Source: a virus
Lineage: Duplodnaviria > Caudoviricetes
DNA length: 64,000 nucleotides
Virus record (IMG/VR): IMGVR_UViG_3300012662_000008
Span: 102,529-166,528 of that record
Reading direction: 5' to 3' (one strand)
In this document: one piece after another, positions 27,302-64,000 of the stretch
How positions within the stretch are numbered: position 1 is the first letter of the stretch
How the letters are laid out: the number at the start of each line of letters is the position of its first letter
Made by a program: the position numbers and the translations under genes
The notes under the pieces: model-generated
Databases searched by the model: none
What the model was told of the DNA's origin: nothing
The model's input: only the letters and a program-made list of their open reading frames with translations

Positions 27302-28865
27302 TTATTTCCTTTTTATAATTCCTCCATGTTTTCTATATAAAAGTCCTCTATCTATAAAAGGAAATGTTGGTCTATTTAAATCATATGGCAAAATTGATTT
27401 TGCTCCATTTATATTAAAATTAGGTAGAGCATAATAATCATAAGATGTGTGCTCCTGCTGCCTTAAAGGAGAATCTTTTTTTCGATAAAAGAAGACCCTC
27501 GCCTTTTTGCTGCGCGTCGTTTAATATTTCTTCAATTCTCTTTGCAGCAGCAGGCCTATCAACCCCATCTGCATTTTTAAATTTGGGCTTTCCGTCAATC
27601 GTTATAAAGTGACCTCCCATTTCTGGAGAAATTTCCATAGTTGCATCTCTAACATTACCAGTGTTTATAACAAAAGCGTTAATGTCGTTGACACCCGATT
27701 CAACTACACTTGGAGATACTTTTCTAATTCTAGTTTGGATGCCGCCTCTTTTTTGCATTGGTTTTATATCATATCCAATAGCACTCTTAGGTAATATAAT
27801 TGCACGCTCATCAAAATCTACATCCATTCTTATGCCGTTAAAAGTAACCTTATCCCCAGTTGCAGATGGTCTCAGTTGTCGATACCCACTCGGTTGCTCT
27901 AAAACATAATTTATATATCGCTCTACGCCCTCTTCCCCCTTTCCTAAATCCCCTAGAAATAAGTTTCCAAAAGCATTATCCATCGAGCCGCGTCCTTTTG
28001 CTAATTCTTCTGGAGTGAGTACGGGTCTAAAACTTGGATATCGCCGCGTATCGCCCCTAAATAACAACAGTGGTTCCCCAAATTCATTTACAGCAGCATT
28101 TCCAGGCTTAGAAAGAGACATTGCTTTCTTATATAAAGCTCCCGCTATCTCGTCATCCGTTATGTCGTCTCTTCCAACAAGTCCATATCTTTCCCTTGCT
28201 TCTGGAACGTATTTTTTTATTCTTTCCATTAAAGGGGATGCTTCTACTGGTGATTGAGTTCCATATTTTTTAAACATCTTAACAGCTTCGTCGCCTTGTT
28301 TTCAAGTTTGTGGGCCAAGTTTTCAATTAAAGTCTTTTACAGCTTGCTTTACGGCTAGAGCATATTCTTTTGCCAATTTAACCCCCTGTTTAATTCCTTG
28401 GCCTACTCCGTATAAACCTAAGGCTAGGTCTACTGCATTTCCTGGATTTAAAAATTCGGCACCTATATTTCCGGCTACGCCTCAATCATTTCCTTTGCGA
28501 ACTAGTTCTCCAAAAGTTTGATAATCTCCATTACTTTTTTGGTTTGCATAAAAATCAAGTGGAGTACCAAGTATATTCATAGATCGCATTGTTGTGTCAA
28601 ACGCATTACTTAGAAACTCCTTTTGACCTTCATGTATTTTATCTTTCATTTCTTTAGTTCCGACTTTTTCTTGTTGATCTTTTGTCCATTTTTTTACGAT
28701 CTTTCGGCTTGAGATTATCTGGGGTCTCGTCGTAGATCGTATCTATTATAGCACTAGCGCTATTGTTATATAACCACTGGCGAGCTTCTTGTGCTTTAGA
28801 ATCATCACTCCAGAATCATTCTGGATGCTGAATGGCGTATGTTTGAAGTTTATTAACATAGCCAT
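27302..28865 (-). CDS. Putative ADP-ribosyltransferase-like effector (TGA=Trp; +1 frameshift at A7 run 27476-27482)
   Basis: ATG at 28865 is in frame with track ORF 27438..28277; NEFGEPLLLFRGD...F...GNLFL...NAFVIN resembles the ART-PolyVal pattern; the shifted frame ends YRKHGGIIKRK-TAA. Confidence 0.55.
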
Positions 28866-28897
28866 AGTAGTCGTTGTGTTTTATTTTTCCCATAGTG

Positions 28898-28905
28898 CAA
28901 AGATA
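28898..28905 (-). promoter_or_regulatory. Bacteroidota-type -7 promoter element for the leftward arm
   Basis: TATCTTTG on the minus strand 33 nt upstream of ATG 28865. Confidence 0.55.
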
Positions 28906-29127
28906 ATAATTTTTTTAAAATTGTATATATGTTGAGGAGAAATGGACACATTAGAAAATCGTCCCCCCGGGCTGTGCCACGGGAAAACGATTTTCTTTTC
29001 AAACTGTTTCTGAAATTTAGGACAAAAGAAAAGTAAAACTATCTTTTGTTCTACGTGGCTGCTCGACGACGTGTAACTTGGTCGGCCGTAACCGTTGGCA
29101 ACGATATGCTGGCACAAGACCTGCAAT

Positions 29128-29628
29128 ATGGGAAATATTCGCAAGTCTGTAAATCTCCTGGCCTTCTACGAGGGTCGGGAGACTAGCGGATCTCGGGATA
29201 TCGACCTTAGGGCAAGGATCAACGGGCAGTTCCGTGGAGTTTCGTTCTCGTTTCATGACGGGGATGAAATTTCCTTTCCGGACGCAAGTGAGCTTCGCGC
29301 TTACTTCGCGGAAGGATATCGGACTGTAGGGTTGGTTGTAGCAGCGGAAGTCAACGGTCGTATGACCGACGTTCCGCTCTACGCCCTAAGGAAGACTCCT
29401 AAGGGACTAGTCGATGCTGAGCAATCAGCATATGACGAGTTCCGTGCGAGCCATCCTCTCTATGCAGCGTTGACGATTAGCCCGAAGAGCGATCTTCAGG
29501 CATTCGTTGACGAGGACTTGTTTGGCAAGTCCTTCCGCGTGGAAGAGCAATCTTTCACCTGCGGACGCGGGGAGGGTGACGAGTACCGGGAGTTCTCTTA
29601 TAAGTGCTGGGCACTTGTAGAGGCCTGA
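29128..29628 (+). CDS. Early hypothetical protein, paralog 1 (GC-rich)
   Basis: MGNIRKSVNL...; aligns along its full length with 30120..30653; ends in TGA. Confidence 0.8.
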   Translation: MGNIRKSVNLLAFYEGRETSGSRDIDLRARINGQFRGVSFSFHDGDEISFPDASELRAYFAEGYRTVGLVVAAEVNGRMTDVPLYALRKTPKGLVDAEQSAYDEFRASHPLYAALTISPKSDLQAFVDEDLFGKSFRVEEQSFTCGRGEGDEYREFSYKCWALVEA

Positions 29629-29773
29629 GTCCGTCCATCGGCGCAACTCCGATTGAAAACTACGACCTTTCTGCTACCTCAATAAAAGAGATGGTTAATA
29701 GTAGCAGTAACTTTTAGACTGTTTCGTGTATATAGGAAACAGTGTCTACAAGACCTAGAACACCACTAGGCAA

Positions 29774-29815
29774 ACCCGCAATGGTTGTACAGTCGTTCGA
29801 TTCGACTGGCGGGTA
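29774..29815 (+). ncRNA. tRNA-like minihelix (acceptor stem plus T arm only)
   Basis: ACCCGC-10 nt-CAGTCG-TTCGATT-CGACTG-GCGGGT-A. Confidence 0.5.
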
Positions 29816-30119
29816 CTATTCCCGTATATTCGGGCGCAGTTGTGCGTTAAACAACAAAGACGCTTGTAGACGAGCTGGTTGTAGACAACGCTACACAGTC
29901 CAGACTGTATCTGGTAATTAGTTAACAACGGTCAACTTGGAGCACGCCGAAGTATAGTAAGCAGCTTGGTTGACAGGCCATGCGGTAATCCATAGCTACG
30001 TGCTAGGGGATGAAGAGCCAATGCGACTGTTGTTGAACTATCGTTGGAGCGAGGTGACGGTTCGAGCCCTCGTGAGACCAACACGCAACGAGTGCAGCGT
30101 TATGCACTTTTCATTGACT

Positions 30120-30653
30120 ATGGCATCTCTTAAGAAGTCTGTCAATTTGTTTAATTTCTTCGCTGGTTCTGAGACCAGCGGAAATAAGGATCTTGACCGC
30201 AAGGCCAAGATCAACGGCCTCTTCAGAGGGGTCTCTTTCTCGTTCCATGATGGGGACGAGATTAAGTTACCTCAGAAAGAGGATCTGAGAGCTACGTTCT
30301 CAGAGGGGTACCAGACCGTTGGCCTGGTACTCCAGGACGTGGACCTCAACGGGAGGAAGTCTGAGGTGCCTCTCTACGCGCTTCGGAAAACTCCGAAGGG
30401 TCTCGTCCCTGAAGACGAGGCCCGGTACGAGACCTTCCGCAAGGATCATCCGCTTTATGCGGAGATGACGCTCTCGCCGAAGAGTGATCTCTCCGCATTT
30501 GTGGATGCAGATCTATTCGGACGCAAGTTCTCCGTCGTTGAGGCGGAGTTCACCTGTGCCCGAGGTGACGGCGATGATCGCCGAGAGTTCCAGCACAAAA
30601 TCTGGGCTCTCGAAGAGATCCCGGAAAAGAAGCCCAAGAAGGCTTCCAAATAA
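30120..30653 (+). CDS. Early hypothetical protein, paralog 2 (GC-rich)
   Basis: MASLKKSVNL...FRGVSFSFHDGDEI...VPLYALRKTPKGLV shared with paralog 1. Confidence 0.8.
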   Translation: MASLKKSVNLFNFFAGSETSGNKDLDRKAKINGLFRGVSFSFHDGDEIKLPQKEDLRATFSEGYQTVGLVLQDVDLNGRKSEVPLYALRKTPKGLVPEDEARYETFRKDHPLYAEMTLSPKSDLSAFVDADLFGRKFSVVEAEFTCARGDGDDRREFQHKIWALEEIPEKKPKKASK

Positions 30654-30658
30654 CAAAT

Positions 30659-30684
30659 AGAGGGGTTTAACAGCCTCTCTTTTT
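30659..30684 (+). terminator. Rho-independent terminator
   Basis: AGAGGGGTT..CAGCCTCTC hairpin plus T-run after the stop. Confidence 0.6.
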
Positions 30685-30820
30685 AAACCGACGGAACTAG
30701 ATGCTCCGCCGGTTTTATTTTTTTATCGCGATGCGGGCTCCGCCTCGCATTCGCTCGCCCTGTGGGACACAGAGACTGTATCAAGTATGTAGTATAAACA
30801 CCATTAAAAATTTTTAAAAC

Positions 30821-31363
30821 ATGGCAAAGATCAAGTTCGGGACTGATGTCCCTAATGTGTTCAATGCTAAGGCATTGAACACAAAGAGCGGAAGCCTGGC
30901 CGCTCTCAAAAACATCCACCAGGCATTCCAGGGCTATTCCATCTCCGAGGACGAAAGTGTTACACTTCCGTCATGGGCGGAAATTGAGAAGAACCCTGCT
31001 TCTTACCTTAAGGAGCAGGATGCCCGCGTAGGATCACGCAATAAGACAATGCTAGTCCGCGTGATCCGTACAAAGGGTTCGGTCCGCAAAGAGAGCTGGC
31101 TGAATCTTGGGGTCCTCAGCCGTCAGTGCAACGACGCTGAGGGCAACAGAATCTATCCTGACGAGCTCCGCGAGACGCTTGCACAGATGGATTCTGACTA
31201 CGAGCGCCTGCAGTACGTTGCAGGGCACACGCTCGTAGCGACCGGTACGTATGACGCGTACCGCCCCGTTTTCGAGGACGGCGCTGTGAAGCGCAACGAA
31301 GACGGTGAGCGTGTATACGAGAGCGCTACGTACGTCACAATCGAGATGAGGGATGCTGAGTAG
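30821..31363 (+). CDS. Early hypothetical protein (GC-rich)
   Basis: 180 aa ORF with an AT-rich translation start region. Confidence 0.8.
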   Translation: MAKIKFGTDVPNVFNAKALNTKSGSLAALKNIHQAFQGYSISEDESVTLPSWAEIEKNPASYLKEQDARVGSRNKTMLVRVIRTKGSVRKESWLNLGVLSRQCNDAEGNRIYPDELRETLAQMDSDYERLQYVAGHTLVATGTYDAYRPVFEDGAVKRNEDGERVYESATYVTIEMRDAE

Positions 31364-32201
31364 TATCCCTTGTCTCTATACAATCAAAGGTAACCACTGA
31401 AATGACTACATCATATATCCCGGAGGTAAACTCGAACTTACTAACGGATATATATGACGTAACGTCAGTGGTTACTGAACGATTGTGAAATCCGGAGAGA
31501 AATGAACAATTCTCTCCGTGATTTATCCATAACACTTTGATCGGTGTTATGGGTACAATAGTCTAGGATTGTTGCATCCTAGGCAAGGCAGGGGTCGCGT
31601 TATCTGCCGAATGAGAAATCATAGGGTTTAACTGGCCCTCGCGTAATTAGCGCACAATAAAACAAGAAGCGCATCACAAACAAGCTACCATGCAACAAGT
31701 AGTTTGTTTGTTTTTATTTTTAACAAGGCCCCCGTGAAAGACTTATATAGCGCACACCTATATAAGAAACTGCAGGCGGCCACTTATTTATTTATTTTTT
31801 TAGTGTGCGCATCTACTTATTACAACCTCTTGACGCTAAGCTATTTGTGTGTTTCCAGCGAACCAAAAAGAGTGTTTGTAATAGGCAGATTTATGTGTAA
31901 AAAACCTTGAAACACACCTGTAATCGGACAGAATGTGCGTCCGAAGTATAGAGTTGCATCTATACGAAACGTATTGTGGAGTCGCGCCCACTAGGGAAAT
32001 ACGTGTGATAATTCCCCTATTATCACAAACTAGATCGTGTTAGTTACACGTGAATGCAACAAACTCTCTATAGGTGGCCTAACTAGCTGCGTCTAGACTA
32101 TTGAGAGAACTCCCAAAATAAGCAGTGCCTTTACGTGGCTTGGAAGATAAGTAGGAAACGAAACTAAATCTGCTAAAAAGAAACAATTAAAACAATTTAT
32201 T

Positions 32202-43784: not shown

Positions 43785-43858
43785 GTGTCTGTGGCGCAGT
43801 TGGTTAGCGCATGATACTTTTAATATCAGGGTCATGAGTTCAAGTCTCATCAGACACA
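43785..43858 (+). tRNA. tRNA-Lys(TTT)
   Basis: GTGTCTG/CAGACAC acceptor; TGATA-CTTTTAA-TATCA anticodon arm. Confidence 0.92.
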
Positions 43859-44037
43859 CCGTTAAATAAAAACAATTATGGAATATTTTGTTATTGATAA
43901 AAATTGGGTGGGATTACTTGTTACAAAGGATCTCGTAAAATTAAAAGAGTTTCTGGATAATGACCAATCTTGGGATAAAGTTCTCAAAAGACCAGAAATA
44001 GGAGAAAATTGGACTTTTGTTACAAATAAAATAAATT

Positions 44038-52416: not shown

Positions 52417-52488
52417 ACCCTCGTAGTTTAATGCTTAGAACTGGGGACTTCAAATCCTTAAGTGCCTGTTGGATTCGGGCCGAGGGTG
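52417..52488 (+). tRNA. Opal suppressor tRNA, anticodon TCA (presumed Trp)
   Basis: ACCCTCG/CGAGGGT acceptor with G73; GGGGA-CTTCAAA-TCCTT arm (anticodon 52450-52452); short variable loop, so not tRNA-Sec. Confidence 0.88.
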
Positions 52489-52576
52489 CCTAACTAATTG
52501 ATTATAAATATTTTACATTGAAAAATTCTATTCCCACTCGGCTGTGAAGTCCAGTGGGTTTTTATGTTTTTAGCTA

Positions 52577-62909: not shown

Positions 62910-64000
62910 ATGCTTACTAGAACAGAACGACAAAAACTTGCATTAAAACGATGAGTAGAAGCCAGTTGCACCGCAGTCGTCTCAGCGTGCACTGGCTTCG
63001 GTTAAGCAAAACGAGATTGGCAATAATGGCAATTTCGTTGCTACTAAAACAAAATCCGGATGCATATATAATTGTTAGTGTTCCTACACAGTACTTGAAA
63101 GATCAATGGATTGCAGAATTAGAAAAATACAGTCTTGTTAATAATTGCGATGTAATTATAGTGAATACAATCGTTAAACATACGTATGTTGTTGATTTAC
63201 TGATAGTTGACGAAATTCATGCTACAGCCTCAGACATGTTTCAGAAGATTTTTACGGCAGTTAACTATAAAATGATTTTAGGACTTACTGCAACTCTTGA
63301 AAGACTTGATGGGAAAGAGATAATTATAAAAAAGTATGCACCGGTATGTGACACAATTACTCTTGATGAAGCAACACAAAATGGATGGGTTTCACCTGCG
63401 AAACATTATCTTGTTCTCTTGAATGTTGATTTAAAAGAATATAAGGAACTAGATAGGAAATTTAATAGTTATTTTGCGTTCTTTGGCTTCGATTTTAACT
63501 GTGCGATGTCAGCTTTGCAAGAATGACCGTATCGCAATAAGTTTGCGAAACAGATTGGGTCTGATCCAAAAACTGTTTTGCAGATGGCAGCACAATGAAT
63601 GAAGGCATTACACGCAAGAAAGGCTTTTATAGAGAATCATCCGAAGAAAATTGAAATTTGCAGACAGATTTTAGATGCTAGACAAGACACAAAATGCATA
63701 ACTTTTTGTCCAACAATAAAATTTGCAGAATCAATAAAAAGAGGGATTGTTTTACACTCTGGCAAGAAAGCATCTGAAAACAAAAAGGCAATCGAAGATT
63801 TTAACGTTGCTACTGAAGGAGTACTTAACTCCTCAAAAATGTGCAGGGAGGGCTGCGATATTGCTGGTTTAACAACTGGCGTTATAATGGATGTAGATAG
63901 TTCCAAACGATCTAGCATACAAAAAGCTGGAAGATGCGTTCGTTACTCGCCTGGAAAAACAGCCGAAATCTTTACTCTCGTTATTAACAACACCCAGGAA
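62910..64000 (+). CDS. Superfamily 2 (DExH) helicase, runs off window; Walker A interrupted by 5 nt at 63003-63007
   Basis: CTGFG|KTR, DEIH, LGLTAT, EGCDI and QKAGR motifs; internal TGAs. Confidence 0.85.

Follow-up and report, generated by a model that had tools for sequence, protein, structure and literature searches.

A putative short stop-codon hop within the Walker A motif of a crAss-like phage helicase

The two open reading frames (ORFs) of a helicase gene in a gut crAss-like phage are probably joined by programmed short-range translational bypass (a 'stop-hop'), in which the ribosome would pass over five nucleotides that open with a stop codon and lie within the Walker A motif. Since the gap varies in length at one spot among relatives while the gene is under strong selection, ribosomes most likely hop it, and the helicase hop is most likely, by analogy, a rare natural short counterpart of T4 gene 60 bypass. 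A programmed hop was one of the options raised by an earlier sequence-only reading of this DNA, and it is supported by the position of the gap, the stop codon, a Gly-like triplet at the end of the gap, a covarying hairpin and purifying selection. The window, i.e. the whole stretch of DNA analysed, is the last 64 kb of a circular 166,528-bp contig, and contains the following features at the junction.

62910–63002, plus strand: ORF1 (exon-1 equivalent) of the SF2 helicase, 31 codons, ending with T-G-F-G, the first four Walker A residues
62958–62999, plus strand: 5' hairpin, with a perfect 9-bp outer stem (62958–62966 with 62991–62999), 4 + 2 inner pairs and two bulges
63000–63002, plus strand: proposed take-off codon GGT (the last Gly of TGFG), as read in the sequence
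63003–63007, plus strand: 5-nt coding gap TAAGC, of which TAA (63003–63005) is the 0-frame stop and AGC (63005–63007) the proposed landing triplet
63008–64000, plus strand: ORF2, resuming at Lys AAA (K-T of Walker A), with DEIH, TAT and Helicase_C motifs
63010–63039, plus strand: 3' hairpin of 10 + 2 bp, beginning 2 nt into the Lys codon

Read from ATG 62910, the frame is MLTRTERQKLALKR-W(TGA 62952–62954)-VEASCTAVVSACTGFG, its 3' end being ACT GGC TTC GGT, and is then closed by TAA (63003–63005). The sequence-only reading had described this junction as the ATG 62910 frame, then TAA GC and then AAA ACG AGA in another frame, and the sequence bears it out; the reading made no mention that ORF1 requires TGA 62952–62954 as Trp, which fits the window-wide recoding of TGA and the presence of a tRNA with anticodon TCA. 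ORF1 aligns with the N-termini of the uninterrupted relatives P0005, P0006 and P0007. As regards a possible nascent-peptide signal, its basic motif RQKLxxKRW occurs in intact alleles too, and ORF1 is only 31 codons long. ORF2, in the +2 frame from AAA 63008, comprises 376 codons (331 within the window, the remainder at the contig start) and matches Pfam ResIII (PF04851) and Helicase_C (PF00271) as well as the PHROG 'DNA helicase' family phrog_16. When 63003–63007 are omitted, the joined frames give ACTGFGKTR, a string identical to that of the uninterrupted relative MT836666.1, in agreement with the earlier claim that skipping 5 nt restores CTGFGKTR. The joined product has the hallmarks of an SF2 helicase, namely DEIH (motif II) and a C-terminal helicase domain, and motif I becomes complete only when the 5 nt are passed over; the remaining helicase motifs had been called intact, and DEIH, ResIII and Helicase_C are indeed found in ORF2. 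In the GenBank phage collection the closest helicase is 43% identical, and no annotated precedent for the junction was found there. Gene callers give the helicase as N-terminally truncated, P-loop-less proteins (P0003, P0004, P0019, P0057, P0079, P0098 and P0111), an annotation which the proposed hop would correct.

Relatives were recovered by protein search followed by contig look-ups, and a gap at the same point recurs among them. The sister lineage (94% amino-acid identity) carries TAGGT at the same length and position in four assemblies, while eight further alleles with gaps at exactly the same point are found in diverged relatives (53–61% identity). The gap alleles, written as take-off codon, gap and Lys codon, include the following.

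5-nt gap, sister lineage: GGC TAGGT AAA (L006, L098, L099) and GGT TAGGT AAA (L100)
1-nt gap: GGG T AAG (L094)
4-nt gap: GGT TAGC AAA and GGC TAGC AAA (L008/9, L093)
5-nt gap, diverged relatives: GGG TAGGT AAR (L007, L046, L048)
7-nt gap: GGT TAAGGGT AAG (L010–12)
10-nt gap: GGT TAAATAAAGT AAA (L050)

In all gap alleles the take-off codon is the last Gly of TGFG (GGT, GGC or GGG), the incoming frame meets TAA or TAG at the start of the gap, and the gap ends in an RGY triplet (GGT, AGC or AGT) directly before the Lys codon. The pair in the window, GGT to AGC, is a 2/3 match to the Gly anticodon/codon, as had been pointed out before, and AGC or AGT is the landing triplet in four alleles; take-off codons GGC, GGT or GGG of relatives are paired with GGT as landing triplet, a full or wobble match. 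The gap alleles occupy at least seven places on the tree. Re-pairing of peptidyl-tRNA-Gly on the RGY triplet is the sole route giving TGFGKT in every allele, and fixed +1, +2 or −1 shifts would add 0–3 different residues to the P-loop.

An ordinary +1, +2 or −1 frameshift at the Gly-stop, with 0–3 extra residues being tolerated (TGFG-S-KT in the window), is an unlikely alternative. In its favour, +1 shifting classically occurs where a shift-prone codon is followed by a stop in the A site, and the 1-nt and 4-nt alleles fit +1; however, the length of the product would then vary within a motif which is length-invariant in about 70 intact relatives, and the constant RGY triplet is explained by a re-pairing tRNA-Gly, not by an inserted residue. 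Moreover, the resume frame of L050 is closed by its own TAA inside the gap, so that a simple +1 shift at take-off would terminate and nothing short of a 7-nt hop would work. Reassignment of TAG or TAA was also considered and rejected, as read-through stays in the wrong frame and meets further stops. A separate case is L027 (IMGVR_UViG_2799112923_000002), which has one extra G at about 2470–2500 (ACT GGG TTT CGG AAA); it shifts the frame from the first Gly of TGFG onwards, and the A site holds no stop. The extra G reflects either a sequencing error in the homopolymer or a +1 slip site (GGG to GGT).

The 5' hairpin (62958–62999), noticed in the sequence-only reading directly 5' of the Gly codon, is confirmed by folding: the 91-nt region reaches −36.8 kcal/mol (z −4.7), and none of 200 shuffles was as good. 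Its 3' arm consists of the T-G-F codons and ends at the base immediately preceding the take-off Gly codon. When the 66 nt that precede this codon were folded for distinct alleles, all ten gap alleles gave −20.9 to −25.5 kcal/mol with the last 8–9 nt before take-off paired, against a mean of −10.1 kcal/mol (best −18.4) for 47 intact alleles and −6 to −14 kcal/mol for insert-bearing ones; the gap and intact alleles are fully separated (Mann-Whitney U = 0, p = 4e-6, uncorrected for phylogeny). The gap allele is the more stable in five of five sister contrasts, which are few as independent contrasts go (in kcal/mol, gap versus other: −22.6 vs −8.6; −22.0 vs −13.6; −23.1 vs −10.9; −21.5 vs −18.1; −23.5 vs −18.4). 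The hairpin is not exclusive to gap alleles, since those of the intact L024 and L028 are fairly strong (−18).

Across six alleles the outer 9-bp stem is 98% paired and shows three compensatory double changes, a result matched by 2 of 500 shuffles. In L007 and L046 the 5' arm lies one codon (3 nt) further upstream, indicating that the structure is kept and not the positions. Between L046 (gap) and L044 (intact), whose exon 2 sequences are 96% identical, 10 of 48 cassette positions differ as against 25 of 600 in exon 2 (Fisher p = 9e-5), and the differences in the cassette are stem-creating substitutions. The hairpin is thus associated with the gaps and covaries; a search of related helicases for a conserved gap after TGxG and a covarying hairpin, which had been suggested as a check, found both. 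The 5' hairpin may have a role in the hop. The 3' hairpin (63010–63039) leaves 63000–63009, the gap included, as a single-stranded linker; it was rejected as a general signal, being absent in other gap alleles and confined to the TAAGC lineage, and is probably lineage-specific and not part of the general cassette. A UUCG tetraloop in GGC-UUC-GGU was likewise rejected, as it is not closed in the GGA-UUC-GGG alleles and is probably a by-product of codon choice. Neither an A-site stem-loop nor a Shine-Dalgarno-like element such as those of gene 60 was found in the folded junction region.

Other relatives carry long inserts exactly between the Gly and Lys codons, the same site as the gap. These inserts are either 265 nt without an ORF or 1,056–1,212 nt with a LAGLIDADG ORF (Pfam); the 5' exon ends in U and the insert ends in G. 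They may be group I introns, as suggested by the U...G ends and the LAGLIDADG ORF, and an Rfam search of two of them (L003, L064) returned no group I model. The gap itself has no such character, as a ribozyme core does not fit into 5 nt, the last letter of the gap is C, and the take-off codons of relatives end in C or G, which breaks the group I U rule. The earlier suggestion that the gap is an intron scar is incorrect in that form, since the gap letters are not derived from the insert ends, but its location stands, the site being the exact LAGLIDADG insert site of relatives. On the exon 2 tree the intact, gap and long-insert states are interspersed (19 parsimony changes), and L063 (insert), L046 (gap) and L044 (intact) differ very little. 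In two pairs of relatives (L004/L013 and L064/L065) the helicase frame breaks again 68–69 codons into exon 2, which points to a second insert further downstream in the gene. L044 has about 290 nt (at ~1400–1700, with a small extra ORF) between the DNA polymerase and helicase genes which are absent from the near-identical L046.

The terL gene of the same genome is also split, as listed below, and its second endonuclease is 38–41% identical to the endonucleases of the helicase inserts of relatives.

15763–15074, 14079–13648 and 12598–11357, minus strand: three pieces of terL, all matching phrog_6681
15044–14103 and 13636–12755, minus strand: two LAGLIDADG endonuclease inserts of terL (Pfam)

In such an intron-rich genome, with terL split by two LAGLIDADG inserts, the 1–10 nt might instead be excised from the mRNA as a micro-intron acting in trans, the site being an intron insertion site in relatives and the conserved hairpin beside the gap a conceivable recognition element. 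Removal at the RNA level is nevertheless improbable. To our knowledge, no self-splicing or protein-dependent system excises 1–10 nt from bacterial or phage mRNA. The gap letters are also unlike intron ends, the in-frame stop, the Gly take-off codon and the Gly-like end triplet are left unexplained, and the 1-nt allele GGG T AAG is a textbook +1 slip site.

Purifying selection acts on both ORFs and is strong on both sides of the gap. Between the window and L006 exon 2 has dS 1.59, dN 0.035 and dN/dS 0.022, while exon 1 has dN/dS 0.14 with a dS below that of exon 2, as expected if the hairpin adds constraint. In the 18 nt from the gap to the first in-frame ATG (63026) the two sequences differ at four positions, all of them synonymous, and L006 has no start codon in this stretch, so translation of ORF2 should enter from upstream. 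These results bear on the reading of the gene as broken, in which the gap would be a repair scar at a homing-endonuclease site and ORF2 would be dead or internally started (ATG 62951 or 63026) without a P-loop. Such a scar would be at home at a homing site, gene callers do begin the ORF at internal ATGs (P0003, P0004), and a DnaB-type helicase gene is located nearby in relatives. The reading is nonetheless very unlikely, as exon 2 has dN/dS 0.02 at dS 1.6 between two gap lineages with exon 1 constrained too, and change between the gap and the first ATG is solely synonymous. The frames and possible starts vary among alleles, L050 having none, and a common stop, RGY triplet and covarying hairpin at seven or more tree places would not be expected of random scars. 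An independent start at ATG 62951, formed by the CGA-TGA codons, was rejected as a general explanation, as its frame fits ORF2 for 5-nt gaps only.

The identical TAAGC junction is present in ENA ERZ26858279 (L005), ERZ27300204 (L095) and ERZ808252 (L096, coverage 37) and in Logan SRR29834484 (L097), making five assemblies, the window included, from different samples and assemblers; an exact search of IMG/VR with the junction 20-mer gave no match. In exon 2, L005 and the window differ at 32 sites, of which 28 are synonymous and 4 are not. The gap is thus real and conserved, not a sequencing error. Indel errors had been suspected elsewhere in the window and L027 has 1 nt extra in a G run, but an assembly or sequencing artefact is extremely improbable with the same gap in five assemblies, one at 37×, and gap variants in at least 15 further contigs.

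In the proposed hop, the ribosome would translate ORF1 up to Gly GGT (63000–63002), where TAA would enter the A site and be slow to decode, allowing the peptidyl-tRNA-Gly to unpair. The mRNA would then slide by 5 nt and the tRNA would re-pair on AGC (63005–63007), which in relatives is the cognate GGT, before decoding restarts at Lys AAA to give the canonical P-loop ...ACTGFGKTR. The 3' arm of the hairpin would be inside the ribosome at take-off, and its refolding may pull the mRNA forward from the exit side and so drive the hop.

As the cassette lies at the exact LAGLIDADG insert site, it probably blocks homing, and it probably persists by destroying the target of the homing endonuclease without destroying the gene. 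The same reasoning, destruction of the target by a short insertion, has been put forward for the gene 60 insert and MobA (10.1101/2022.08.31.505936). A broader proposal, put forward tentatively, is that the hop cassette (hairpin, Gly codon, stop and gap) might be a self-contained unit exchanged among phages by gene conversion, confer immunity against LAGLIDADG homing and contain in its hairpin a motor sufficient for hops of 1–10 nt.

In T4 gene 60, bypassing involves a stop 3' of the take-off codon, matched codons and 5' stem-loops (PMC5009743; 10.1101/2022.08.31.505936), slow A-site codons being a further element of bypassing along with the matched codons (PMC5009743), and pairing of the exiting mRNA is the forward driver (10.1101/2024.12.09.627546). 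The helicase junction resembles gene 60 and the MobA homologues in its Gly take-off codon, the stop immediately 3' of it and the stem-loop 5' of it. As in gene 60, an essential-type phage gene of DNA metabolism is interrupted with homing-endonuclease traffic at the same site. The matched codons of gene 60 have a partial parallel, the proposed landing triplet being an exact or wobble match in relatives with GGT and a 2/3 match in the window. In contrast, the helicase gap is 1–10 nt as against 50 nt in gene 60, there is no stop-containing take-off stem-loop and no Shine-Dalgarno-like element, and the hairpin abuts the take-off codon whereas that of gene 60 lies 9 nt upstream. The interrupted gene is the Walker A motif of an SF2 helicase in a crAss-like phage group instead of a topoisomerase, and the endonuclease is a LAGLIDADG enzyme in an intron-like insert instead of the free-standing HNH MobA. 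The helicase gap would work like T4 gene 60 bypass by analogy, but it shares no sequence homology with the gene 60/MobA cassette and is not a member of that cassette family.

A 2016 review lists very few cases of utilised bypassing, namely T4 gene 60 with the MobA homologues, the mitochondria of Magnusiomyces and a few candidates yet to be tested; it describes short hops in nature as long anticipated but hardly known, and states that no natural in-frame short stop-hops were known (PMC5009743). Stop-codon hops in constructs likewise involve short-distance P-site re-pairing across a stop, but are low-level and have no stimulators, whereas the proposed helicase hop changes frame and is part of a natural, conserved cassette that has its own hairpin. 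The mitochondrial 'byp' elements of Magnusiomyces capitatus (PMC5009743) are also short inserts made harmless by bypass, in which 2/3 matches of take-off and landing are tolerated, but they are 27–55 nt, mitochondrial and said to be context-independent. In prfB (RF2)-type +1 frameshifting a stop also occupies the A site while the P-site tRNA re-pairs forward, and GGG-U-AAG of L094 is formally the same; the stimulator there is an upstream Shine-Dalgarno duplex in place of a refolding 5' hairpin, and in most helicase alleles the tRNA would have to re-pair without overlap (+4 to +10).

Frameshifting is stimulated in the +1 and attenuated in the −1 direction by upstream hairpins that refold, the +1 effect being shown on 70S ribosomes as well (PMC3639245, PMC6321510). 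In these systems and in gene 60 mutants (10.1101/2024.12.09.627546) a hairpin immediately 5' of the shift site pushes the ribosome forward, as is proposed for the helicase; those are engineered reporters or gene 60 mutants, whereas the association in the helicase is natural and comparative only. If true, a conserved family of 1–10-nt hops in abundant human-gut phages would make bypassing a recurrent solution of phage genomes, tie recoding to an arms race in which homing endonucleases and introns target conserved motifs, and supply naturally varied gap lengths, take-off/landing pairs and hairpins for testing exiting-mRNA pairing as the drive. The more tentative reading of an exchanged cassette with its own motor would, if true, imply a general unrecognised way to carry untranslatable DNA inside essential motifs and furnish a natural allelic series for dissecting bypassing.

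The DNA polymerase gene adjoining the helicase matches crAss-like phages and PHROG DNA polymerase families; the phage is a crAss-like phage of the gut, presumably with a host from Bacteroidota. The contig ends meet inside the helicase gene with a redundancy of 1 nt (window 64000 and genome position 1), and as the helicase joins in frame only with one redundant A dropped, the contig is a circularly closed or permuted genome with a 1-nt overlap. TGA is a sense codon across the whole window, and where the helicase has its two in-frame TGAs, relatives that use the standard code have Trp or an aromatic residue. The tRNA with anticodon TCA, labelled SeC by ARAGORN, is located as given below, and is probably an opal suppressor supporting genome-wide reading of TGA as Trp.

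52417–52490, plus strand: tRNA, anticodon TCA

The whole genome (166.5 kb) was scanned for a second cassette, defined as an ORF stop with a change of frame within 15 nt and a strong hairpin ending 3 nt before the stop, and no convincing one was found apart from the helicase site. Two matches of the scan were rejected: that at window 24736 (minus strand) lies in a long single ORF, and that at window 29184 is a weak pass at an unclear GC-rich spot. The region 28000–32000 of the window, which contains the hairpin-plus-stop site 29184, has a G+C content of 0.44–0.49, compared with about 0.33–0.38 elsewhere. The phage also encodes a tRNA-Lys(TTT) at 43785–43860, which decodes the codon at which translation is proposed to resume after the hop.
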